From assembly GCA_902528875.1 (NCBI GenBank), contig CABZTX010000002.1, positions 7,828-71,827 on the forward strand: 64,000 nt of DNA, read 5' to 3'. The notes beneath the pieces are model-generated. The model had not been told where the DNA came from and made no database searches. It worked only from the letters and a program-made list of their open reading frames with translations. This DNA is from an uncultured SAR86 cluster bacterium. GTDB taxonomy: Bacteria > Pseudomonadota > Gammaproteobacteria > Magnimaribacterales > D2472. Every line of letters begins with the position of its first letter. The first letter of the stretch is position 1. Both the position numbers and the translations under genes were made by a program. Positions 48,039 through 62,402 of the stretch are shown here, one piece after another.

Positions 48039-48626
48039 TTAATTTGTAGAAATTTCATCAATATATTTAGATAATATTGCGAATCTTTGTGAGGCATCAA
48101 ATGCTTCTAATAAATTTTGTTTAGATTTAGATGGAATTGGAATAAGTCCAGCTAAATGATATGCAACAGAATCAGCTGAGTTAAAGTCTATGTTTATAGG
48201 CATTTCGCTTATGGAAGGATGCTTAATTATTTGAGACAAAATATTTGCTATCTCAGGAAACTCTGCTAGCAATGCTTGATCATCTACCTCAGGATCTGTA
48301 ACCGCTTCAATTTCTCCAATGTTAAGACCATCTTCAAGTTGAACAAGATTTCCTATAAGAACTTTATTCATACATTTTACAGTTATCCCCAAAAGGCCGT
48401 TAGGCAAGCTATTAAAATCAATAATTTCAACATAGGATCCCTTTTTTGATATTTCAAAATCTTTGTTGGATTCGTTTTTCTGATACACCATTACAAAACC
48501 TTTATTATTCTTCATGCATTCTTTAACCATAGTCACATAACGTGGTTCAAAAATTTGAAGATTTTGTATAGTTCCTGGAAGAGAAACAATCCCTAACGGA
48601 AATACTGGCAAACTACTTGCTTTCAA
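48039..48626 (-). CDS. LON substrate-binding (N-terminal) domain protein
   Basis: LPVFPLGIVSLPGTIQNLQIFEPRYVTMV start typical of stand-alone Lon N-domain proteins. 195 aa. Confidence 0.75.
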   Translation of the reverse strand: MKASSLPVFPLGIVSLPGTIQNLQIFEPRYVTMVKECMKNNKGFVMVYQKNESNKDFEISKKGSYVEIIDFNSLPNGLLGITVKCMNKVLIGNLVQLEDGLNIGEIEAVTDPEVDDQALLAEFPEIANILSQIIKHPSISEMPINIDFNSADSVAYHLAGLIPIPSKSKQNLLEAFDASQRFAILSKYIDEISTN

Positions 48627-49911
48627 GATAACTCATTAATGGATTTGTAAATTTTTGACTGTCTCTGTTTGTCATAATTAAAATAATATCATACTCAATA
48701 ATAGTATCTTTTACATTACCTAGTAAACAATCAAGATTATTAAAAGTGTTATCTTGAGTATAAACATTTTTATGGTCTAAGATAAGCGTTTGATCTAATG
48801 AGGCTAGTGAATTTAGCAAATTTTCCTTATGAAAACCTGAGGACATTGTATTTGAACCCAACTCCAAAATACCTAATATCTTTTTACTAGGATACTTATT
48901 TTTAAGAGCTGAGGTTGATAGTCTTATTGCAGTCGGATGATGAGCAAAATCATCAAATATTTTTATTCCAGAGATTTCAGCAATTTTATCCATTCTTCTC
49001 TTAACTCCTTCAAAAGACATTAGGGCTTTAATTGATGCTTCTATGGAAATATTTTCTAGCCTAGCGGCAACGATTGCGCAAACATAATTCTTAAAATTAT
49101 GCTCGCCTATTAACGGAAGACTATCAAGAGAATAAGTAGTTTCATCATAAATTAACTCCCTTTTAGAAAAATTGGTCACTATCTCATCAGAATTAATTAT
49201 TATGTTGTTGCACCAGATACCATTCTCGATAACTTTAACTGAATTGTGATCATCCTTAAAAGAAATAATATTTCCAGACTTTTTAATAGTTTTAATAAGA
49301 TGATTAAATTGTTTTCTTATATCTTTAATATCATCAAAGATATCTGCATGATCAAACTCGATACAATTAATTATCAGATTTGTAGGGTTGTAGTGAACAA
49401 ACTTAGAACGCTTATCAAAAAAGGCTGAATCATACTCATCAGCTTCTATAACGAAAATTTTATTGGTACCAAGTTTTGCTGGATCAGCAAAATTTTTAGA
49501 AATCCCTCCAATTAGGTACCCTATATCTATTCCAATTTTAGAGAAAATATGTGCGAGCATATATGAAGTAGTTGTTTTTCCATGTGTACCAGAAATTGCA
49601 TAAACTTTTCTATTTTTAAGCTCTCTTCCAAGGATTTCTGGCCCAGATGTATGAGGTAAATTATTTTCTAAAATATACTCTACACAATCATTACCTCTTG
49701 AGATCGCATTACCGATTACGTATAAATCAGCTTTTGGTAGAGAATCTTTATTGTATCCTTTAGAGGTTTTTATATTTAAGCTCTCTAGATAATGTGACAT
49801 AGGTGGATAGAATTGAATGTCAGAACCTGAAACATCATGTCCAGACTCTTTTAAGATTTGAGCAAGTCCAGTCATGAAGGTACCACATATACCTAAGATA
49901 TGTATTCTCAT
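48613..49911 (-). CDS. mpl: UDP-N-acetylmuramate:L-alanyl-gamma-D-glutamyl-meso-diaminopimelate ligase (murein peptide ligase)
   Basis: MRIHILGICGTFMTGLAQILKESGHDVSGSD, Mur-ligase P-loop GTHGKTTT. 432 aa. Confidence 0.88.
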   Translation of the reverse strand: MRIHILGICGTFMTGLAQILKESGHDVSGSDIQFYPPMSHYLESLNIKTSKGYNKDSLPKADLYVIGNAISRGNDCVEYILENNLPHTSGPEILGRELKNRKVYAISGTHGKTTTSYMLAHIFSKIGIDIGYLIGGISKNFADPAKLGTNKIFVIEADEYDSAFFDKRSKFVHYNPTNLIINCIEFDHADIFDDIKDIRKQFNHLIKTIKKSGNIISFKDDHNSVKVIENGIWCNNIIINSDEIVTNFSKRELIYDETTYSLDSLPLIGEHNFKNYVCAIVAARLENISIEASIKALMSFEGVKRRMDKIAEISGIKIFDDFAHHPTAIRLSTSALKNKYPSKKILGILELGSNTMSSGFHKENLLNSLASLDQTLILDHKNVYTQDNTFNNLDCLLGNVKDTIIEYDIILIMTNRDSQKFTNPLMSYLESK

Positions 49912-49963
49912 ATTAGTTATAATACGACAGTTGTATTTTATTCAAAGCATTAGTGGAGAAATA

Positions 49964-51220
49964 ATGAAAAAAAACGCATTTTATGCCCAATCTGGTGGTG
50001 TCACATCTGTAATAAACGCAACTGCCGCAGCTTTAATTTTGGAAACCAAAAAACATAAATCAAACATAGGTAAAGTCTTTGCAGGAAAAAATGGCATTTT
50101 AGGAGCGCTCAGAGAAGAACTTATTGATACTTCAAAGGAAAGTTTATCTGCAATTAAATCACTAAAAAATAGACCAGGTGGTGCTTTTGGATCCTGTAGA
50201 GTTAAATTAAAAAGTTTGGATGAAAATAAAAAAGAGTATCAACGTTTAGTTGAAGTCTTTAAAGCTCATGACATTGGATATTTTTTTTATAATGGAGGAA
50301 ATGATTCTGTAGATACTGCACATAAAGTTTCACAAATTAGTAAAAAATTGGGTTACCCAATAAGTTGTATTGCAATCCCTAAAACAGTTGATAATGATTT
50401 AGCAATAACAGATTGTTGTCCAGGATTTGGTTCAGCTGCAAAATATATTGCAACCTCAACATTAGAAGCATCTTTAGATGTTGCGTCTATGTCGGCAACA
50501 TCAACTAAGGTATTTATATTAGAAGTGATGGGCAGAAATGCTGGCTGGATGGCGGCATCATCAGCTCTTGCTAGATCAAAAAAGAACGATGCTCCTCATA
50601 TAATTTTGTTACCCGAAGTTGTTTTTAATCAAAAAAACTTTTTAAACAGAGTTAAAAAGACTGTTGAGCTCTATGGTTATTGTGTAGTAGTTTCCTCTGA
50701 AGGAGTTAAAAACAATAAGGGAAAATTTCTTGCTGAATCTGAATCAAAAGATGCTTTCGGTCATGTTCAACTAGGAGGTGTTGCACCATATTTAGGATCA
50801 TTAATTTCGAATAAATTAAAATTAAAAAATCATTGGGCAGTTTCTGATTACCTTCAAAGGAGTGCAAGACATATTGCCTCTAAAACAGATCTTCTTCATG
50901 CTGAGGCTGTCGGAATTCATGCAGTAAGGTACGCAATCAAGGGTATGAATGGAGTAATGCCAGTAATTATAAGGGGGGAAGGTCCTAAATATTCCTGGAA
51001 AATAAAGCCAGCGCCTCTATCAAAGATAGCAAATGTAGAAAAAAAATTGCCAAAATCTTTTATATCAAAAAATGGTTTTAATGTAACAAATAAATGTATC
51101 GATTATCTAAAACCTCTTATAGTTGGTGAAGCATACCCAAAATATAGTTTAGGAGTACCCTCTGTAATGGAATTAAAGCTAATTGAAGTTAGAAAAAAGT
51201 TACCTCCCTGGATTATTTAA
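49964..51220 (+). CDS. pfp: 6-phosphofructokinase with the pyrophosphate-dependent residue signature
   Basis: PFK family (YAQSGGVTSVINA, GGNDS, PKTVDNDL, MGRNAGW). Start moved to the ATG at 49964, preceded by GGAGA at 49955..49959. The listed start at 49874 overlaps mpl on the other strand. Confidence 0.75.
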   Translation: MKKNAFYAQSGGVTSVINATAAALILETKKHKSNIGKVFAGKNGILGALREELIDTSKESLSAIKSLKNRPGGAFGSCRVKLKSLDENKKEYQRLVEVFKAHDIGYFFYNGGNDSVDTAHKVSQISKKLGYPISCIAIPKTVDNDLAITDCCPGFGSAAKYIATSTLEASLDVASMSATSTKVFILEVMGRNAGWMAASSALARSKKNDAPHIILLPEVVFNQKNFLNRVKKTVELYGYCVVVSSEGVKNNKGKFLAESESKDAFGHVQLGGVAPYLGSLISNKLKLKNHWAVSDYLQRSARHIASKTDLLHAEAVGIHAVRYAIKGMNGVMPVIIRGEGPKYSWKIKPAPLSKIANVEKKLPKSFISKNGFNVTNKCIDYLKPLIVGEAYPKYSLGVPSVMELKLIEVRKKLPPWII

Positions 51221-51701
51221 AATTTTTTGAATTAAGTTCATCTATGATTTCTCTGACAACATTTTTAAGAAGTACTTTATCGTCATCATTAAGAAAATCT
51301 CCAACAAAGACATTTTCTCCTTTAGATCTAAAACTAAGTTTTAGAGATTTGTTTTTATCTTTTTCTATATTAAATGATGTGAATGTCCTAAATTCTTTCC
51401 ATAAATAGTCTGCTTTATTAAAGCCTTTTTCTATTTTAACAATCTCTTCAGATATATAAATTTTCTCTTTTTTACTGCTCCATCTAAAACTTAAATAGAA
51501 TGCAATAAATAAAATTGTTAATTCAAGACCTGCAAATGGCAATATGAGCGAGGCGCCCAGAAAGAAAAATATAATTCCGATGCCACCACAAATAATTGTG
51601 ATGCTTAATAAAAAAAGTATCCTATACTTCCCCTCCAATGAGCTATTTGGACTTAATAAAATTAAATAGCTTGATTCATTATTTTTTTGAACTGAAACCA
51701 A
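51213..51701 (-). CDS. DUF2244-like integral membrane protein
   Basis: LSPNSSL...two TM helices...LPFAGLELTILFIAFYLSF, followed by a soluble domain. TTG start, boundary uncertain. Confidence 0.5.
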   Translation of the reverse strand: MVSVQKNNESSYLILLSPNSSLEGKYRILFLLSITIICGGIGIIFFFLGASLILPFAGLELTILFIAFYLSFRWSSKKEKIYISEEIVKIEKGFNKADYLWKEFRTFTSFNIEKDKNKSLKLSFRSKGENVFVGDFLNDDDKVLLKNVVREIIDELNSKNFK

Positions 51702-51721
51702 TTTAAAGAGCCTTTTGAATT

Positions 51722-53968
51722 TTAGTTATTATCAGAATTATTAACCACTTCGGTTAATCTCTCAATATTTATTAATTTACCAACTTTTTTACCTCGTTTA
51801 GCTCTTGATAAAATGTATTGTTGCCAGTCTTTTGGTTTTAATGTTATTGATCTTTTTCCTACTTCAATCATTAAAGAGCTATCATCTGAGAGAACTTGCG
51901 CATGAGCCATGAATTCTTCACCTGCTTTTAATTTGTCTTTTGGAATATTTATAATTTTGTTTCCTTTTCCTTTTCCTAAAACTGGTAATTCTTTTAATTC
52001 AAATATTAATAGTTTTCCGATGTTTGAAACTGCTGCAATATAGCTGTGATCTTCTTTTATAGGAATTGCTTTTAACATTTTTGCATTTTCTGGTAATTTC
52101 ATAAAAGCCCTTCCAGTCTTCTTGTTTGAAATCATGTTTTTGTATTCCGAAATGTAGCCATAACCAGCCGTATTCATTATTAAGAATCTACTTTCATCAC
52201 TTCCTATAACAGATGAAATAAATTGAACTCCTGAATCAGCACTCAATCTGCCAGTAATCGGCTCTCCCATTCCTCTTGCTGATGGCAACGAGTGACTTGG
52301 AATAGAATATGCTTTTCCGTTGGAATCTATGAAAACAGTGATTTGATTACTTTTTCCTCTTGCAAAATCTTGTAAAGAATCATCACCTCTGTATGACAAT
52401 GAATTTGGATCTATATCGTGTCCTTTTGCACTTCTTATCCACCCAGCCTTAGAAAGAACAACAGTAATAGATTCAGTGATAATGGTTTCTTCTTCAGAAA
52501 AAATCTTTGCTGCGGAAGATGCAATTATTGGTGACTTTCTATTCTCACCGAAGTTTTCTTTTATTTCATTTAATTCTTTTTTTATAAGGGTCTTTAATCT
52601 TGTTTTTGATTTTAATACCTTTTCAATTTCATTTTGTTCAGTGGTGAGATTTTTCTTTTCATCTTCAAGTTTTATTTGCTCTAGCTTGGCTAATTGTCTA
52701 AGCTTTATCTCTAAAATAGCATTTGCTTGAATTTCTGATAACTTAAAATTTTTAATCAAATCTTTTTTTGGTTCATCAGATTTTCTAATTATTTTTATCA
52801 CTTTATCAATATCAATGAATATTAGTAATAATCCTTCCAGGATATGAAGCCTATCATTTACTTGATCAAGTCTATGTTCTAATTTCCTTTTAACAGTATT
52901 TTTTCGAAATACCAACCACTCTTTCAACAAATCAATTAATGCAAATACCTTAGGTCCGCCTTTCAGTGAAATAAGATTCATATTTGTTCTATAATTTTTT
53001 TGTAGATCAGTGGATGCAAAAAGATGATTCATCAAGTCATCTGCATTCACTCTGTTAGATTTAAGAGTTATTACTAGCCTTACCGGATATTCATGGTCTC
53101 CTTCGTCAGCGAGGTCTACTACCATAGGAAGCTTTTTATTCTGCATTTGTTCTGCAATTTGTTCGAGTATTTTTGATCCAGAGGCTTGATAAGGCAGAGA
53201 ATCAATAATTATTGAATTCTTCTCTTGCTGCCATTTTGCCTGGATCTTAAATCCACCTCTACCAGAAGAATACATTTCCTCAAGCTCTTCACTATTAATT
53301 ATTACTGGAGACTCATTTGAAAAGTCTGGCCCTTTTATTATTTTGAGAATTTCTTTTAGGGATGTTTTAGGTTCTTCAAGAATTTTTATTGTTGCATCAA
53401 TGATTTCATTAATATTGTGAGATGGTATGTCTGTTGCCATACCTACAGCAATTCCTGATGTTCCATTTAATAAAATAGAGGGTATCTTTGATGGGAAAAT
53501 AATTGGTTCTAAAAGAGATCCATCAAAATTAGCTTGCCAGTCAACTGTGCCAAGCTTTAATTCAGAAATTAATAAGTTTGCAAAATTTGTAAGCTTAGAT
53601 TCAGTGTATCTCATAGCTGCAAATGACTTAGGATCATCTTGCGATCCCCAATTGCCTTGTCCATCTACCAAGGGATATTTAAATGAGAAATTTTGCGCCA
53701 TTAAGACCATTGCTTCGTATGCAGCACTATCTCCATGAGGATGGAATTTACCAATTACATCTCCTACTGTTCTTGCAGATTTTTTATATTTTGAAGATGC
53801 ATCTAAGCCTAGCTCCGACATGGCATACAAAATTCTTCTTTGAACTGGCTTAAGTCCATCACCGACGTTAGGCAAAGCTCTATCAAGAATTACATACATC
53901 GCATAGTTTAAGTAGGACTTTTCAGCGTACTTTTTTAAACTTATAGAATTAATTTCTTCTCTAGACAT
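51722..53968 (-). CDS. parC: DNA topoisomerase IV subunit A
   Basis: [32 protein letters not shown], active-site AAMRYTE. 748 aa. Follows parE. Confidence 0.92.
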
Positions 53969-53973
53969 AATTT

Positions 53974-55866
53974 TTATATTCTAACTAATGAGCCTTTCTT
54001 TTCTAACCATTCTTTTCTTGCAGGTGCATTTTTCTTTGACAACAAAAGATCCATCATTGCATTTGCATTATCAGTTGCTGAAATTGATAACCGAACTAAT
54101 TGTCTTGTTTGCGGATCCATAACAGTTTCTCTTAGTTGAGATGGGTTCATTTCGCCAAGTCCTTTAAACCTTTGGATATTAATTTTAGGTTTGCCTTTTT
54201 TAGCTTTGAATTTCTTTACAACATTATCTTTATGTTTTTCATCTAAGGCGTACAAGACCTCCTTACCACAGTCAATTCTATATAATGGCGGCATGGCAAT
54301 AAAAATTCTACCCTCATTAACCAAGGATTTGAAATGCCTTAAAAATAGAGCACAAAGAAGAGTTGCTATATGAAGCCCATCGGAGTCGGCATCGGCAAGA
54401 ATACAAATTTTTCCATACCTTAGTGAGGTAATATCAGAACTCCCAGGCAACACACCTATTGCAGTGGATAAGTTTTTTATTTCTTGAGACTTGATAATTT
54501 CTTGGCTTTCCAAATCCCATGTATTAAGAATTTTTCCTCTTAGTGGCATTATTGCTTGGAAAGATCTTTCACGAGCTTGCTTAGCTGATCCACCAGCAGA
54601 ATCACCTTCAACTAAAAATAGTTCTGTTTCATTTAAATCCTCACTATTACAATCTGAAAGTTTTCCTGGCAAAGCAGGACCCTTGAAAGTTTTCTTTCTT
54701 TCAACAATACTTGAAGCTTTTATTCTTGTTTGAGCAGACATGATTGCCAGCTCAGCAATTTTCTCACCTTCTTCAGTATGTTTATTTAGCCAAATACTCA
54801 AAATATCTTTTGTTGCACTTGAAACAAAGGTCATATGATCTTTAGAGTCAAGACGTTCTTTGGTTTGGCCTGCAAACTGAGGATTTTGCATTTTTGAAGA
54901 AATAACAAATATTGCGTTGCTTATAACGTCATCTGCGTTTAACTTTAATCCTTTTGGTAAAAGGCTTCTGTATTCACAAAATTCTTTTAATGACTCTAGT
55001 AAACCTGATTTAAACCCGTTTAAGTGGGATCCGCCTTGAGGCGTAGGAATTAAATTTACATAGGTTTCTTCTAATTTATTTTTTGAGGGTTTTTCTGACC
55101 AATTTATTACAAATTCAACTTCCTGAGTGTCTGAATTCTTGGATGATAAGATCGACTCCTCTAAAATTAAATCAATGCCTTCAGATACATCATCAAGATA
55201 ACTTTTTAATCCATCTTCATAAAACCATTTTATTTTTTCTTTCTTTTTTTCATAGTGAAAATCGATGGTTAGTCCAGGACAAAGAACAGCTTTTGCTTTC
55301 AACAAATGTTTTAGTTCTTTTACTTTGATTTCGACCGACTCAAAATATTTTTCGTTAGGTTTAAACTTAATAGTCGTGCCAGTATTACGAATTCCAACGT
55401 CGCCTACAATTTTTAGTTCATTTTTTTTGTCGCCATTATTAAATGACATCTCATGGTCTTTTGAATCTCGCTTGATGTTGACTTGAAGATTCTCAGATAA
55501 AGCATTCACAACAGAGACACCTACTCCGTGAAGTCCACCTGAAAAATTATATTCCTCTCCAGAAAATTTAGCACCAGCATGAAGCTTACATAAAATTAAT
55601 TCAACACCGCTTACTTTGTGATCAGGATGAATATCAACTGGCATTCCTCTTCCATCATCTGCAATTTGAATATTTCCATCCTTATAAATTTTAATTTTTA
55701 TATTTGAGCAATGTCCTGCGATTGCCTCATCAATAGAGTTATCAAGAACTTCTTGAATTAAATGATTTGGGCAAGATGTATCAGTGTACATACCTGGTCT
55801 TTTTTTTACAGGATCAAGACCAGAGAGAACCTCTATTGCTTTTGAGTCGTATGTGTTCTTGGCCAA
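53974..55866 (-). CDS. parE: DNA topoisomerase IV subunit B
   Basis: [58 protein letters not shown]. 630 aa (ParE size, with no GyrB insertion). Confidence 0.92.
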
Positions 55867-57414: not shown

Positions 57415-58224
57415 ATGCCAGAACTGCCTGAGGTTGAAACAACCGTTAGAGCTATAAAGAGTTTTGAAGGCTCTGATTTAAAAAAAATTATAATTCATAA
57501 TCCTAATCTGAGATGGAAGGTTGATCCCAAGATAGAGAAAGTCTTAAGGGATAAATTCATAAAAACAATTAGCAGGCGTGCCAAGTATATTATTATTACT
57601 TTTGATTCAAAATATCTAATAATACATTTAGGTATGTCTGGTAAGCTAAGGATACAAAAATCAAAAGATAATTTCTTCAAAAAGCATGACCATGCGGAGT
57701 TGATATTAAAAGATTTTAAAATTATATATAACGATCCCAGAAGATTTGGGTCAATTCATTTAATAGATGATATAAATTCACATTTCTTACTATCCTCATT
57801 AGGTGTTGAGCCATTGTCTAGATCTTTTAATAAGGAATATTTACACGGTCTTTCAAAAGATAGTAATTTAAATATAAAAAAATTAATAATGGATCAAAAA
57901 AAAGTTGTTGGAGTTGGAAATATATATGCATCTGAGAGCTTATTCTTGGCAAAAGTAAAACCAACAAAAATATCAAGAAATATTAATCTTGATGAATGTG
58001 CTGCAATAGTAAGCTCTATAAAAAAAATTCTCAAATATGCAATTAAAATGGGAGGAACAACACTTAATGATTTCTATTCAGCTGACGGAAGCGAGGGATA
58101 TTTTAAGTTAAAACTCAAGGTTTATGGAAGAGAAGATAAACCATGCAAGTCCTGCGGTGAGGTGATAAAAAAAATTAATATTGGGCAAAGAGCTACTTAC
58201 TATTGCACAAAGTGTCAATCTTAA
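57415..58224 (+). CDS. mutM: Formamidopyrimidine-DNA glycosylase
   Basis: MPELPEVET N-terminus, H2TH, C-terminal zinc finger CKSCG...YYCTKCQ. 269 aa. Confidence 0.95.
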   Translation: MPELPEVETTVRAIKSFEGSDLKKIIIHNPNLRWKVDPKIEKVLRDKFIKTISRRAKYIIITFDSKYLIIHLGMSGKLRIQKSKDNFFKKHDHAELILKDFKIIYNDPRRFGSIHLIDDINSHFLLSSLGVEPLSRSFNKEYLHGLSKDSNLNIKKLIMDQKKVVGVGNIYASESLFLAKVKPTKISRNINLDECAAIVSSIKKILKYAIKMGGTTLNDFYSADGSEGYFKLKLKVYGREDKPCKSCGEVIKKINIGQRATYYCTKCQS

Positions 58225-58703
58225 GAGCCTAATTTAGCTTTCAAAGCTTTCTCTACAGAGGGATGAACAAATTTAGATATATCACCCTTTAGATCACATA
58301 TCTCTTTAATCAAGCTTGATGATACATATATCAAACTCTCCTTTGGTGTTAAAAAGATACTTTCTATATTTGGAGCTAAAGATCTATTCATTGTAGCTAG
58401 TTGGAATTCATACTCAAAATCTGAAACAGCTCTAAGACCTCTTATTATTGCGCAAGCGTTTTGTTCTTTTGCAACGTCAACAGTTAGTTGCCTTGGGAAT
58501 CCCATTACATCAACTTTCTGATTGTCTTGATATATATTCTTTGTTAACTTGATTCTGTCTTCTAATGAAAATAATGGATTTTTGGTTTCGCTTTTAGCAA
58601 TAGCAATTACAATTTTATCAAAAAGACCAGATGCCCTGTCGATGATATCCATATGACCAAAAGTTATAGGATCAAAGGAACCAGGGTAAATTGCTACTTT
58701 CAT
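58221..58703 (-). CDS. coaD: Phosphopantetheine adenylyltransferase
   Basis: VAIYPGSFDPITFGHMDII. 160 aa. Convergent with mutM as in E. coli. Confidence 0.95.
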   Translation of the reverse strand: MKVAIYPGSFDPITFGHMDIIDRASGLFDKIVIAIAKSETKNPLFSLEDRIKLTKNIYQDNQKVDVMGFPRQLTVDVAKEQNACAIIRGLRAVSDFEYEFQLATMNRSLAPNIESIFLTPKESLIYVSSSLIKEICDLKGDISKFVHPSVEKALKAKLGS

Positions 58704-58789
58704 ATATATTGAATAATACTAAACAAATTCATTTAATCAAAATATATATATTTTTAAAAAAACACCTTTTTCAATATATTTTAGTAAAT

Positions 58790-58817
58790 TTGATACCTTT
58801 TGATATTTTGGTATCAT
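58790..58817 (+). promoter_or_regulatory. Predicted sigma70 promoter of the proteorhodopsin gene with an overlapping 7-bp inverted repeat
   Basis: -35 TTGATA (58790..58795), 16-nt spacer, extended -10 TGgTATCAT (58809..58817). TGATACC (58791..58797) and GGTATCA (58810..58816) form a dyad spanning both elements. Confidence 0.5.
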
Positions 58818-58880
58818 ATATAGTTGTATATTAACGGGGGGGAGTAATTTTACTCCTACTACTTATATAAGGAGTTATAT

Positions 58881-59612
58881 ATGAAATTTTTATTAATGTT
58901 GGCTACTGCTGTTGCTATGCCTGCTTTTGCTCAAGACTTAAGCATGGGTGACATGACCGGAGTGTCATTTTGGTTAGTAACTGCTGCTATGCTTGCTGCG
59001 ACAGTCTTTTTCTTTGTTGAAAGAGATAGAGTTCATGGTAAGTGGAAAACATCTTTATCAGTAGCTGGTTTAGTTACTGGTGTAGCATTCTGGCATTATC
59101 TATATATGAGAGGAGTTTGGGCTGATACTGGCACATCTCCAACTGTCTATAGATATATTGACTGGTTAATCACAGTACCACTTCAAATTATTGAGTTTTA
59201 CTTAATTCTTAAAGTTTGTACAAATGTTGGTGCAGGTCTATTCTGGAAACTATTAAGTGCTTCTGTATTAATGCTTGTATTTGGTTTCGTAGGTGAAACT
59301 GGTGGAGCAGATGCAAATTTAATGGGTGTTCTAGGTGTAATAGCATGGCTATATATTATTTATGAGGTATTCATGGGTGAAGCTGGAAAACTTAACGCTG
59401 CAAGTGGAAACGCTGCCGCTCAAAGTGCTTTCAACTCAATCAGATGGATTGTTACAGTTGGTTGGGCTATCTATCCAATAGGTTATTGGGTAGGTGTCGG
59501 TGCTAGTGCTGATATGGCTGGTGCAAACCAAATTTATAACTATGCTGATTTTATTAATAAAATCGCATTTGGTTTAGCTATATATGTAGCAGCTGTTAGC
59601 GACTCTGAATAA
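58881..59612 (+). CDS. Proteorhodopsin (light-driven proton pump), predicted blue-absorbing variant
   Basis: Signal peptide MKFLLMLATAVAMPAFA. Seven TM helices. FWHY (His75 equivalent). RYIDWLITVPLQIIEFY gives the D-T-E motif with Gln at the tuning position (codon 59184..59186). Schiff-base Lys in YNYADFINKIAFG. Collinear with the SAR86 EBAC31A08 protein recalled from memory. Confidence 0.95.
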   Translation: MKFLLMLATAVAMPAFAQDLSMGDMTGVSFWLVTAAMLAATVFFFVERDRVHGKWKTSLSVAGLVTGVAFWHYLYMRGVWADTGTSPTVYRYIDWLITVPLQIIEFYLILKVCTNVGAGLFWKLLSASVLMLVFGFVGETGGADANLMGVLGVIAWLYIIYEVFMGEAGKLNAASGNAAAQSAFNSIRWIVTVGWAIYPIGYWVGVGASADMAGANQIYNYADFINKIAFGLAIYVAAVSDSE

Positions 59613-59629
59613 TATTAATTTATTATATG

Positions 59630-59656
59630 AAACCCAGCTTTATGCTGGGTTTTTTT
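59630..59656 (+). terminator. Rho-independent terminator of the proteorhodopsin gene
   Basis: AAACCCAGC-TTTAT-GCTGGGTTT, with the T-run continuing to 59656. It starts 18 nt after the stop codon and overlaps the stop of the convergent SDR gene. Confidence 0.8.
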
Positions 59657-60374
59657 ATGGCTGAATTTCTTCACCACTCCAAGATAAGAATTTTCCTGAA
59701 TCATCAGAGCTTAAGTTATTAATAACTTTTAAGAGTTTTTCAGCGCTGTAATCAGGAGAAAACATATTATTTGAGCTCACATTTTTTTGAAATGGCTTAC
59801 TCAAGTTGCTCTTAACCGTTCCTGGTTGTAGACCAACAAAGATTGCATTTAGGTTTGATCTTTTTATTTCAATACTAAAATTTTTGATGATTTGATTAAG
59901 AGCTGTCTTGCTGGATCTGTAAGAGTACCATCCTCCAATCTTATTGTCAGAAATGCTTCCAACTTTAGCACTTAAAAAAGCAAAAACACTTTTATTAGTT
60001 TTTGCTAGATAAGGTATGAAGTGCTTTCCAATGAGCGCGGGTCCAAATGTATTTATATGAAACACCTTTTTTAGCTTCTCTTCAGATAGATCTTTTATAC
60101 TTTTTTCAGGAAAAATATCATCATTATTATGAAGAAATCCAGTAGCGACAAAAATTAAATCAAATTTAGTTTCTTCCGGAATATGTTTAAGTGAATCTAT
60201 TATTGATTCTTCTTTTTCAATATCTATGAAGATATTTTTTTCTTTTTTTGTATCTTCTTTAACTCCAGACCTAGAAAAGTTGTAAACCATTTCAACAGAA
60301 TCATCTCTTGATAGAATTTTAGATATCGAACTTCCTATGGCTCCAGAAGAACCAATTATGGCAACATTTTTCAT
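59655..60374 (-). CDS. Short-chain dehydrogenase/reductase (SDR)
   Basis: Cofactor motif IIGSSGAIGSS, catalytic YSYRSSK (YxxxK). 239 aa. Confidence 0.8.
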   Translation of the reverse strand: MKNVAIIGSSGAIGSSISKILSRDDSVEMVYNFSRSGVKEDTKKEKNIFIDIEKEESIIDSLKHIPEETKFDLIFVATGFLHNNDDIFPEKSIKDLSEEKLKKVFHINTFGPALIGKHFIPYLAKTNKSVFAFLSAKVGSISDNKIGGWYSYRSSKTALNQIIKNFSIEIKRSNLNAIFVGLQPGTVKSNLSKPFQKNVSSNNMFSPDYSAEKLLKVINNLSSDDSGKFLSWSGEEIQP

Positions 60375-60384
60375 ATATTATGTA

Positions 60385-62133
60385 TTATGGTTTTCTAATT
60401 TCATCTACCAATTGGTAGATATCTTCAGGTGGTCTACTATAAAAACTTGAGACAGATAATGCAACAACAAAATTTATTATCATTCCTAAAAAACCGAACC
60501 CCTCAGGAGAAATACCTAAAAACCAAAAATCATTATTGTTCAAAGATGGATTTATAAATTTAAAGTAACTTATATAACTAGAGGTTGCTATCAGGCCACA
60601 TAACATACCAGCAATAGCGCCCTCTTTATTTAATCTTTTATAAAAAATTCCCAAGAATAATACTGGAAATATAGTTGCTGCTGCCAAACCAAATGCAAAG
60701 GCTACAACTTGTGCAACAAATCCTGGAGGATATATTCCAAATAAACCTGCAATAAATATTGCTACTGCTGCAGCACATCTCGCAAAAAATAATTCTTGTT
60801 TATCACTTATATTTGGCATGAGCATATTTTTCATTAAATCATGTGAAATTGATGCTGATATTACTAATAACAATCCAGCCGCTGTAGATAAGGCTGCAGC
60901 TAAAGCGCCAGCAGCTACTAATGCGATAACCCAATTCGGTAACTGTGCAATTTCAGGATTTGCAAGAACCATGATGTCATTGTCAATGTAAATTTCATTC
61001 TCATTTGACCGATCTGGACGATTTGCTACTAACCTTTCACCATGTTGTCCCCTTTCAGATATGTATTTTGGTTTCACTTCTTCAAGAGCGTTTCCATTTG
61101 AATAATTAATAAGCCCATCACCATTTTTATCTTTCCAAGCAATTAATCCAATATTCTCCCAATTTTTAAACCAACTTGGAACAGACTGATATTCAGTTTC
61201 CTGAACTGACTCTATAAAATTTATCTTTGCAAAAGCGGCGACTGCTGGAGCAGTTGTATAAAGAAGAGCTATGAAGACAAGAGCATAACCAGCAGATTTT
61301 CTTGCATCGCTAACTTTTGGAACTGTAAAAAATCTAACAATAACATGAGGGAGTCCTGCTGTACCAAACATTAATGCTGCAGTTATAAAAAATATATCAA
61401 TGTTGCTTTTTGTATTTTCAGTATAAGCATTAAATCCTAGTTCAATTGAAAGTTGGTCGAGTTTATCAAGTAGGTAAACTGAGGAACCAGAAATCTTGTC
61501 ACCAAATCCCAATTGAGGGATTGGATTATTTGTAATCAAAAGTGAAATAAATATGGCTGGAACTAAATATGCAAATATAAGAACACAGTATTGAGCAACT
61601 TGAGTGTAGGTGATGCCTTTCATGCCACCTAGAACGGCATAAAAGAATACAATTAACATTCCTATGATTACTCCAATATTAATATCTACTTCTAAAAATC
61701 TTGAGAATACGATTCCAACTCCGCGCATTTGTCCAGCTACATAGGTGAAAGAGATAAAGATCAAACATACTATTGCAACTAACCTAGCAGTCTTTGAGTA
61801 ATATCTAGTTCCAATAAAATCAGGGACAGTATATTTACCAAACTTCCTTAAATATGGAGCTAGTAAAAGTGCCAATAATACATAACCACCTGTCCAACCC
61901 ATTAAATAAACAGATCCATCTTTACCTAAAAAAGCAATTAAGCCAGCCATTGAAATAAAGGATGCTGCAGACATCCAATCTGCAGCAGTTGCCATTCCAT
62001 TGGCAACAGGACTTACTCCTTTTCCAGCAATATAGAAGTCATTTGTTGATCTTGCTCGTGACCAAATTGCTATTCCTATATATATAGCAAATGATGCACC
62101 AACAAATAAATAAGTTAGTCCTTGAAGTCCCAT
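60385..62133 (-). CDS. Sodium:solute symporter family permease (large subunit of a DUF4212-associated transporter; ActP-like)
   Basis: 582 aa with about 13 or more TM helices and SSF-type motifs. Preceded by, and overlapping by 1 nt, a DUF4212 small-subunit gene. Confidence 0.8.
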   Translation of the reverse strand: MGLQGLTYLFVGASFAIYIGIAIWSRARSTNDFYIAGKGVSPVANGMATAADWMSAASFISMAGLIAFLGKDGSVYLMGWTGGYVLLALLLAPYLRKFGKYTVPDFIGTRYYSKTARLVAIVCLIFISFTYVAGQMRGVGIVFSRFLEVDINIGVIIGMLIVFFYAVLGGMKGITYTQVAQYCVLIFAYLVPAIFISLLITNNPIPQLGFGDKISGSSVYLLDKLDQLSIELGFNAYTENTKSNIDIFFITAALMFGTAGLPHVIVRFFTVPKVSDARKSAGYALVFIALLYTTAPAVAAFAKINFIESVQETEYQSVPSWFKNWENIGLIAWKDKNGDGLINYSNGNALEEVKPKYISERGQHGERLVANRPDRSNENEIYIDNDIMVLANPEIAQLPNWVIALVAAGALAAALSTAAGLLLVISASISHDLMKNMLMPNISDKQELFFARCAAAVAIFIAGLFGIYPPGFVAQVVAFAFGLAAATIFPVLFLGIFYKRLNKEGAIAGMLCGLIATSSYISYFKFINPSLNNNDFWFLGISPEGFGFLGMIINFVVALSVSSFYSRPPEDIYQLVDEIRKP

Positions 62134-62402
62134 TATTCTTTTTCTCTATTGTCTATTTCAGAAGAGCTTGAAAAGAATTTTTTATCTAGTTTATTTAATA
62201 AGTAAACGTATATAAAAATGATCAAAACAAAAAAGTAAATACTGCCCTGTTGAGAAAACCAGAATCCTAGCTTAAATCCACCAATCTTGAAATCATCTAA
62301 TTTATCTGACCAAATGATCCCAAAACCAAATGAGACAATAAACCAAACAACTAGAAGTGAAATTAGAATAATTAGATTAGACTGCCAATAAGAAAATTTC
62401 AT
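62133..62402 (-). CDS. DUF4212 small membrane protein (putative solute:sodium symporter small subunit)
   Basis: 89 aa with two TM helices. GGFKLGFWFSQQGSIYFFVLIIFIYVYLLNKLD matches the family pattern. Confidence 0.75.
   Translation of the reverse strand: MKFSYWQSNLIILISLLVVWFIVSFGFGIIWSDKLDDFKIGGFKLGFWFSQQGSIYFFVLIIFIYVYLLNKLDKKFFSSSSEIDNREKE

Follow-up and report, generated by a model that had tools for sequence, protein, structure and literature searches.

The stretch of DNA analysed here, 64,000 nucleotides from a SAR86 genome and referred to below as the window, very probably encodes a blue-tuned, retinal-binding proteorhodopsin (PR) that would act as a proton pump. The gene would be expressed as a monocistronic unit from a conserved chromosomal slot, and its product would use a chromophore that is either scavenged or supplied by an unknown route. 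This reading draws on the homology of the protein to PRs of solved structure, on the placement of its functional residues, on the conservation of the locus among SAR86 genomes and on the gene content of the window.

Identification of the proteorhodopsin gene

The PR coding sequence is an ATG-initiated open reading frame on the plus strand (58881..59612) that comprises 243 codons plus a stop. The Pfam family Bac_rhodopsin (PF01036) covers residues 26–237 with an E value of 1.1e-42, and the PR alignments obtained in a search of the PDB span residues 2/19–243 of the query, which is its full length. The best solved relative is the blue PR (BPR) Med12 (4jq6), with an E value of 3.9e-89. Mutants of the HOT75 blue PR gave 6.8e-85 (4kly) and about 1e-84 (4knf), while the green PR (GPR) structures 8cqc, 7b03 and 2l6x gave values of 1e-81 to 1e-83, with 8cqc at 1e-83. 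In pairwise comparison the window PR is 64% identical to Med12 BPR, 58% identical to GPR and 58% identical to HOT75 BPR.

A hydropathy scan of the protein showed seven hydrophobic segments, ahead of which lies an N-terminal hydrophobic leader (residues 1–17, ending ...AFA|QD). The leader is predicted to be a signal peptide, MKFLLMLATAVAMPAFA, encoded at 58881..58931 on the plus strand and probably cleaved between AFA and QD. It is absent from the deposited PR chains 4jq6, 7b03, 8cnk and 2l6x, and the alignment to these begins at query residue 18–19. An earlier reading of the same DNA, referred to here as the first-pass annotation, had described the product as a seven-helix retinal protein, and the family match, the full-length PDB matches and the seven segments after the leader all agree with this description. 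By its sequence the gene is an intact and ordinary SAR86 PR gene.

The GC content of the PR gene is 38%, compared with 31–35% in its neighbours. A recent horizontal transfer of the gene was considered and rejected, as its GC3 is only 23% and its chromosomal slot is conserved.

Gene organisation and expression signals

The PR gene lies between two genes on the opposite strand. Upstream and divergent is coaD (phosphopantetheine adenylyltransferase; 58221..58703, minus strand), which was identified by the Pfam family CTP_transf_like and is 86–98% identical in syntenic SAR86 loci. Downstream and convergent is a gene for a short-chain dehydrogenase/reductase (SDR) of 239 amino acids (59655..60374, minus strand; Pfam adh_short). 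The best NCBIfam model for this protein is PRK09009, a generic SDR model, with a score under the curated cut-off. Beyond the SDR lies a two-subunit VC_2705-type Na+/solute symporter. With coaD divergent and the SDR convergent, PR stands alone between them, as had been described in the first-pass annotation. A tblastn search with the flanking proteins showed that SAR86A and more than 12 single-cell genomes (SAGs) share the gene order parE-tolC-fpg-coaD-PR-SDR(-symporter/SSF)-2-hydroxyacid dehydrogenase. The flanking proteins are 61–99% identical in these collinear loci, and the SDR adjoins PR in all syntenic SAR86 loci.

The highest-scoring promoter candidate in the 177-nt intergenic region upstream of PR is a sigma-70-type site, TTGATA-16 nt-TATCAT with an upstream TG (extended -10), at 58790..58817 on the plus strand, which matches at 10 of 12 positions in addition to the TG. 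The scanned region held 11 promoter-like sites where 10.8 were expected, which is no excess over chance, and the argument for the promoter is therefore its conservation across orthologous loci rather than its scan score. The hexamers are kept as TTG(A/C)TA...TG(G/T)TAT(C/G/T)AT in 15 syntenic SAR86 loci, and the sequence further upstream has diverged. The proposal that PR has its own promoter is upheld in part by these results, in that the candidate is conserved in the 15 orthologous loci but the scan hits are at chance level. A GATACC...GGTATC inverted repeat that overlaps the -35 and -10 hexamers was considered as an operator and dropped, as it is not consistently kept in the other loci. A Shine-Dalgarno sequence, AGGAGU, is located at 58870..58875 on the plus strand; its GGAG core ends 6 nt before the ATG, and the sequence does not vary among the aligned syntenic loci.

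An intrinsic terminator follows the PR gene at 59629..59656 on the plus strand. It consists of a 10-bp GC-rich hairpin, GAAACCCAGC / GCUGGGUUUU, followed by a U-run, for which RNA folding gave -17.4 kcal/mol and z = -4.09, and the hairpin is conserved in 15 of 15 syntenic loci. A consensus terminator scan of positions 58100–60500 returned no site. We set this negative aside since folding and cross-species conservation both show the hairpin, and the clean terminator that had been proposed for PR is well founded despite the empty scan. With the PR and SDR genes converging, the hairpin falls between their stop codons, and it may be active in both directions. PR is monocistronic, and its promoter, leader and terminator have been kept across SAR86 species.

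Retinal supply

To form a pigment the apoprotein would need retinal, and the first-pass annotation had stated that no crtEIBY or blh genes occur in the 64 kb. Among the open reading frames of the window of at least 90 amino acids, Pfam detected no member of the polyprenyl_synt, SQS_PSY, Amino_oxidase, lycopene cyclase, BCD (Blh) or RPE65 families. Most of the window was scanned directly, while the region 48039..55866 was covered through the precomputed Pfam table of a Tara scaffold that is 99–100% identical to it. The families that Pfam did assign belong to housekeeping, the envelope, transport and the biosynthesis of amino acids or haem. Three open reading frames have no confident family: one of 128 amino acids at 260–646, one of 153 amino acids after leuS, and one with a weak match to DNA polymerase III delta. 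The position after leuS is the usual place of lptE. As a positive control we applied the same Pfam method to a Porticoccaceae locus (L056), where it detected polyprenyl-synthase and amine-oxidase genes (crtE- and crtI-type) directly after PR. With the scans negative and the control detected, the statement about crtEIBY and blh is accurate for the window.

Dupont et al. 2012 reported that four SAR86 assemblies, together with SAR86 BACs and fosmids, were without all five retinal-pathway genes, that an SDR with a possible activity on retinoids lies beside the SAR86 PRs, and that chromophore scavenging is possibly necessary for SAR86. The absence of crt and blh genes from the window matches this reported genome-wide trait of SAR86, as does the flanking SDR. 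Since SAR86 genomes are reported to be without the retinal pathway, the host would have to scavenge its chromophore or produce it in some unknown way, although the 64 kb analysed leave room for a distant blh/crt cluster in the present strain.

In a homologue search with the SDR, aimed at distant relatives beside PR in other lineages, the 120 proteins listed are all SAR86 relatives, 68–98% identical to it. Outside the SAR86 slot, among the loci that were fetched, only Porticoccaceae carry a comparable SDR, which is 39–42% identical and lies about 3 kb from PR. A functional coupling of PR and SDR based on these Porticoccaceae loci was rejected as having too little evidence, and within SAR86 the adjacency of the two genes coincides with the general synteny of the region. 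We also considered whether retinal enzymes are encoded by the extra gene that SAR86A-type loci carry between coaD and PR, or by the neighbours of PR elsewhere in SAR86. This was rejected as well, as these genes encode a CoA-transferase III, a DUF4149 membrane protein and a SnoaL-like protein instead.

A gene for a retinal protein in a genome that makes no retinal could be a relic, or could work only sporadically, with the apoprotein usually non-functional. Such a situation would fit the window, where no retinal-synthesis genes were found, and the SAR86 genomes, reported by Dupont et al. 2012 to be missing all five of them; it would also fit the case of an actinobacterium without blh that pumped only after retinal was added. 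However, another bacterium without blh makes retinal by an unknown route, and the reading frame in the window is intact, with functional residues that have been kept in dozens of SAR86 species at 75–95% PR identity. The promoter, leader, Shine-Dalgarno sequence and terminator have been conserved too. The literature also reports that PR transcript counts per cell in SAR86 are very high and rank among the highest, and that SAR86 respiration differs between day and night, being higher at night. With this in mind we consider a non-functional apoprotein to be improbable, and a working pigment remains the preferred reading.

Functional residues and predicted proton transport

The residues that define a PR were located in a MAFFT alignment of 84 sequences, made up of the window PR, three PDB sequences and 80 related loci. 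In this alignment H72, R91, D94, T98, Q102, E105, D223 and K227 of the window PR correspond to H75, R94, D97, T101, position 105, E108, D227 and K231 of GPR. H72 is found within the motif FWHY, while D94, T98, Q102 and E105 are all found within the helix C motif RYIDWLITVPLQIIEFY. K227 is within ADFINKIAFG, which matches the surroundings of K231 in GPR (ADFVNKILFG). The corresponding codons on the plus strand are 59160-59162 for D94, 59184..59186 (CAA) for Q102, 59193-59195 for E105 and 59559-59561 for the Schiff-base lysine K227.

The functional columns are invariant throughout the 80 related loci, where position 105 alone varies and is either L or Q, and the K231 column is invariant in 84 of 84 aligned sequences. 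The structures of HOT75 mutants provide a cross-check of the numbering. The Asn that replaces D97 in both 4kly and 4knf is opposite D94 of the window PR, and the Leu that replaces Q105 in 4knf is opposite Q102, with which Q105 of HOT75 likewise aligns. The first-pass annotation had placed an Asp, Thr and Glu at D97/T101/E108, a His in FWHY, the Schiff-base Lys in ADFINKIAFG and a Gln, with codon CAA at 59184..59186, at the equivalent of position 105. Each of these assignments is confirmed, the coordinates of the Gln codon are exact, and in the alignment to characterised PRs the Lys and the Asp and Glu do fall at retinal-pocket positions.

From the established knowledge of GPR and BPR we infer the following mechanism for the window PR. 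All-trans retinal would form a Schiff base with Lys227 (K231), and on illumination it would isomerise, with the Schiff-base proton passing to Asp94 (D97). Asp94 would be held by Thr98 (T101), His72 (H75), Arg91 and Asp223, while Glu105 (E108) would reprotonate the Schiff base from the cytoplasmic side. The net outward transport of protons would supplement the proton-motive force. Pigment formation and pumping by the window PR are probable by analogy with its relatives MED49C08 and GPR, the closest characterised pigment compared by sequence being 64% identical to it.

Not all members of the Bac_rhodopsin family are proton pumps. The family includes sensors and pumps for other ions, and chloride- and sodium-pumping rhodopsins were also returned by the PDB search, with weak E values of 1e-9 to 1e-4. 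It is established for the family that NDQ is the motif of sodium pumps and NTQ that of chloride pumps. The window PR has neither of these and instead has DTE, together with H75, a hallmark of PRs. Proton-pumping PRs match it about 80 orders of magnitude better in the PDB search, and no transducer or signalling gene adjoins it. It is therefore very improbable that the gene encodes a sensory rhodopsin or a pump for Na+ or Cl-, and outward proton pumping is the function that we assign to the putative pigment.

Spectral tuning and photocycle

The residue at position 105 is known to set the tuning of PRs, with Q giving blue absorption and L, M or I as the alternatives. On this basis the window PR probably belongs to the blue-absorbing subclass, and Gln102 should put its absorption maximum near 490 nm, a value read from one residue.

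The first-pass annotation had also associated Gln at position 105 with a slow photocycle. This association is not general. Sabehi et al. 2005 reported fast photocycles both for MED49C08, a blue PR of SAR86, and for other Mediterranean blue PRs, while HOT75 alone had a slow photocycle, slower by an order of magnitude. As the claim derives from HOT75 alone, a slow photocycle should not be predicted for the window PR. The SAR86A pigment was described as green-tuned by Dupont et al. 2012, but the PR copy on the SAR86A scaffold has Gln at position 105 in our MAFFT alignment, a discrepancy that counts against the blue-tuned reading.

Comparison with known proteorhodopsin loci

The GPR of the SAR86 BAC EBAC31A08 (PDB 2L6X, 7B03 and 8CQC) resembles the window PR in family, in host lineage and in having the DTE residues, H75 and K231, and it was likewise found on a fragment bearing SAR86 rRNA genes. 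The two proteins are only 58% identical, and GPR has Leu at position 105 (green) where the window PR has Gln (blue). PRs that are 91–94% identical to the original GPR (L032, L034 and L044; Leu105) occupy the same coaD-PR-SDR slot as the window gene. Judged from sequence and gene order, the window gene is the positional equivalent of the locus at which PR was discovered, with a different PR allele lineage.

Among the blue PRs, Med12 (4JQ6) has Gln at position 105 and a helix C motif, RYIDWLITVPLQIIEFY, identical to that of the window PR. However, the Med12-type PRs of SAR86 SAGs (98–99%; L030 and L031) have a genomic context that differs from the window slot. HOT75 (4KLY and 4KNF) shares Gln105 and the DTE triad with the window PR, with its crystal constructs carrying Asn at D97, and a PR 87% identical to HOT75 (L038; Gln105) lies in the same slot as the window PR. 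HOT75 itself differs in being 58% identical to the window PR and in having a photocycle that is an order of magnitude slower. The nearest functional precedent is MED49C08, from a Mediterranean SAR86 BAC, which is blue, has a fast photocycle and pumps protons in E. coli (Sabehi et al. 2005). MED66A03, RED17H08 and the Porticoccaceae locus L056 encode pigments of the same family in which PR is linked to the retinal pathway, whereas the window PR adjoins the SDR instead.

When genomes of the window type are compared with those of the GPR and HOT75 types, PR is 58–59% identical, fpg 61% and the SDR 53–56%. PR is no more diverged than fpg and the SDR, which are both fast-evolving, and so no transfer event needs to be invoked to account for the different PRs found in this slot. 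The literature describes divergent PRs as being harboured by different SAR86 subgroups, and the pattern seen for the window fits this description.

Linkage to the rRNA operon and host assignment

The window also contains a complete rRNA operon at 9984..14772 on the minus strand, in which Rfam identified the 5S (9984-10099), 23S (10165-13052) and 16S (13239-14772) genes. The distance from the operon to PR is about 44 kb. The presence of PR on the same molecule as a complete 16S-23S-5S operon had been pointed out in the first-pass annotation and was reproduced here with all three genes. The 16S gene had been placed at 13239..14771; its start is correct, but its end is at 14772 according to Rfam. 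No tRNA genes were found in the 64-kb window, including the 186-nt 16S-23S spacer.

Several features identify the host. The target of the SAR86-1245 probe, the 17-mer TTAGCGTCCGTCTGTAT, is found as an exact match at 13519-13535, inside the 16S gene, where none would be expected by chance; this is a clade-specific FISH probe whose sequence is given in PMC8701031. In a comparison with GTDB contigs, with one genome per species, the closest PRs were those of a marine gammaproteobacterial MAG (95%), of SAR86 SAGs (85–87%) and of SAR86A (81%), and the genomes that come nearest are SAGs and MAGs of SAR86, with 75–95% PR identity. An identical PR with the same neighbours is present on a Tara Oceans scaffold. 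Outside the rRNA genes the GC content of the window is about 31%, with a uniform range of 27–35%, and SAR86 assemblies have a GC content of 30–33% (Dupont et al. 2012). On the strength of the probe site in the 16S gene, the nearest PRs, the synteny with SAR86A and SAGs and the GC content, the host is assigned to SAR86 (Magnimaribacterales), as a gammaproteobacterium whose genome is streamlined and low in GC.

Metagenome assemblies are often mis-joined at ribosomal RNA operons, and the independent Tara scaffold with the identical PR, at about 14 kb, falls short of the operon. A chimera of two organisms is nevertheless hardly credible here: the probe site at one end and the synteny with SAGs at the PR end point to SAR86 independently, the composition outside the rRNA genes is uniform, and SAR86 BAC clones have already shown rRNA genes and PR together on a single piece of DNA.

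The linkage of PR to rRNA genes and the absence of pigment-synthesis genes have been known for SAR86 since 2000–2012. Later papers credit Beja et al. 2000 with the discovery of PR, made on an rRNA-bearing SAR86 BAC; the diversity of PRs in SAR86 was described in 2004–2005, while the SDR neighbour and the lack of a retinal pathway followed in 2012. The first-pass annotation had itself called the gene not novel, and this is right, the PR-rRNA linkage in SAR86 being the original discovery. The window is a clean further example, and its value is one of annotation, as a predicted blue-tuned PR with the DTE motif from a SAR86 species, rather than of discovery.

A conserved motif and possible control element in the 5' leader

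The only possibly new element of the locus is a motif in the 5' leader of PR that recurs across SAR86 clades. The element extends over 58836..58860 on the plus strand and consists of a run of seven G that includes the motif GGGGGAG (58838-58844), followed by a 7-bp hairpin in which 58840-58846 pair with 58851-58857.

GGGGGAG occurs as a single copy in the 64-kb window. Across 40 SAR86 loci, totalling 718 kb, it occurs 43 times when both strands are counted, compared with about 12 occurrences expected from base composition, and 26 of the 43 are within 70 nt upstream of a PR start. Of the 40 loci, 26 have the motif ahead of PR, where it starts 36–46 nt before the ATG. These 26 loci come from four or more PR clades and genomic contexts. 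It is seen in leaders of the window, GPR and HOT75 types, and also in two further groups that have other genomic contexts and leaders that are otherwise dissimilar. A hairpin usually follows the motif, with the exception of one group (L018, and L019, which has the same leader).

A search of Rfam at permissive thresholds found no match in 58650-59000, and the 79-nt leader folds no better than shuffled sequences (z = -0.64). The stem is almost invariant among the aligned leaders and shows no informative covariation. We suggest only tentatively that SAR86 PR mRNAs carry an undescribed, PR-specific control element in the 5' leader, an idea to which we give distinctly less than even weight. GGGGGAG may be an element that affects translation or stability, or a protein-binding site, or it may be merely the conserved 5' end of the transcript. 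If the element is real, a transcript that ranks among the most abundant in a dominant ocean bacterium would have its translation or stability set by it. The motif could bear on the control of PR expression.

In the window the 3' arm of the hairpin, ACUCCU (58852-58857), is complementary to the Shine-Dalgarno sequence AGGAGU at 58870-58875, with which it could pair as an alternative to forming the hairpin. As a separate observation, the leader has two GGA-containing sites, one at about -40 and the other at the Shine-Dalgarno sequence, an arrangement that resembles leaders bound by CsrA-type translational regulators.

Genomic context of the proteorhodopsin gene

The gene content on either side of the proteorhodopsin (PR) gene and the short-chain dehydrogenase/reductase (SDR) gene that follows it (58881–59612 and 59655–60374) differs among the related PR-bearing loci compared here (numbered from L001 upwards). 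Between the SDR gene and a 2-hydroxyacid dehydrogenase gene, the window encodes a two-subunit Na+/solute symporter of the VC_2705 family (60385–62402), and this symporter lies beside the SDR gene in some syntenic SAR86 genomes while being missing from others (comparison sets L002–L006 and L016 versus L001, L007, L010, L012–L015 and L043). It is a presence/absence polymorphism directly adjoining the PR–SDR pair. On the other side, coaD and PR are separated in SAR86A-type genomes (L007, which is SAR86A, L013, L014 and L043) by an inserted gene for a 411-aa member of CoA-transferase family III (8595–9830 in L007), which the window does not have.

The closest genome is the MAG SP266 (L001), with flanking proteins that are 97–99% identical to those of the window, against 95% for PR and 92% for Fpg. 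These identities show that divergence is locally in excess around the PR locus. PRs with 75–80% identity to that of the window are found in different genomic contexts in SAR86 single amplified genomes (L008, L009, L011 and L017–L022), so this PR lineage has at least two chromosomal homes in SAR86. In L009, for example, the gene order is htpG, a DUF4149 membrane protein, PR and a SnoaL-like protein, and both coaD and the SDR gene are missing.

In the Porticoccaceae, a different gammaproteobacterial family from that of SAR86, three loci (L049, L056 and L058) also carry an SDR gene approximately 3 kb upstream of PR, encoding a protein 39–42% identical to the SAR86 PR-flanking SDR. crtE- and crtI-type genes come after PR in these loci.

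Spectral tuning and leader sequence

The SAR86A pigment was described as green-tuned (Dupont et al. 2012), however in our alignment position 105 of its PR (L007 10001–10729, scaffold JH611157) is Gln, the blue type.

In many SAR86 PR loci the start codon is preceded at 36–46 nt by the heptamer GGGGGAG, usually with a hairpin after it (58836–58860 in the window). Of the 43 copies of GGGGGAG in the 718 kb that the SAR86 loci span, 26 are this PR-upstream motif, and the window contains a single copy; the other loci with the motif upstream of PR are L001–L020, L022, L032, L034, L038 and L042–L044. The Shine-Dalgarno sequence of the window is complementary to the 3′ arm of the hairpin. No Rfam family was found to match the leader element.

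TonB-dependent receptor and rRNA operon

An 853-aa TonB-dependent receptor is encoded near the left end (711–3272), in agreement with reports that SAR86 has many receptors of this kind.

The 16S–23S spacer (13053–13238) is short, at 186 nt, and AT-rich, and no tRNA genes were found in it or across the whole 64-kb window. GAM42a is a general probe for Gammaproteobacteria that targets the 23S rRNA. Its target in the window (12021–12037) has one mismatch, GCCTTCCCACATTGTTT versus ...ATCGTTT, and the probe may under-detect SAR86 cells of this type.
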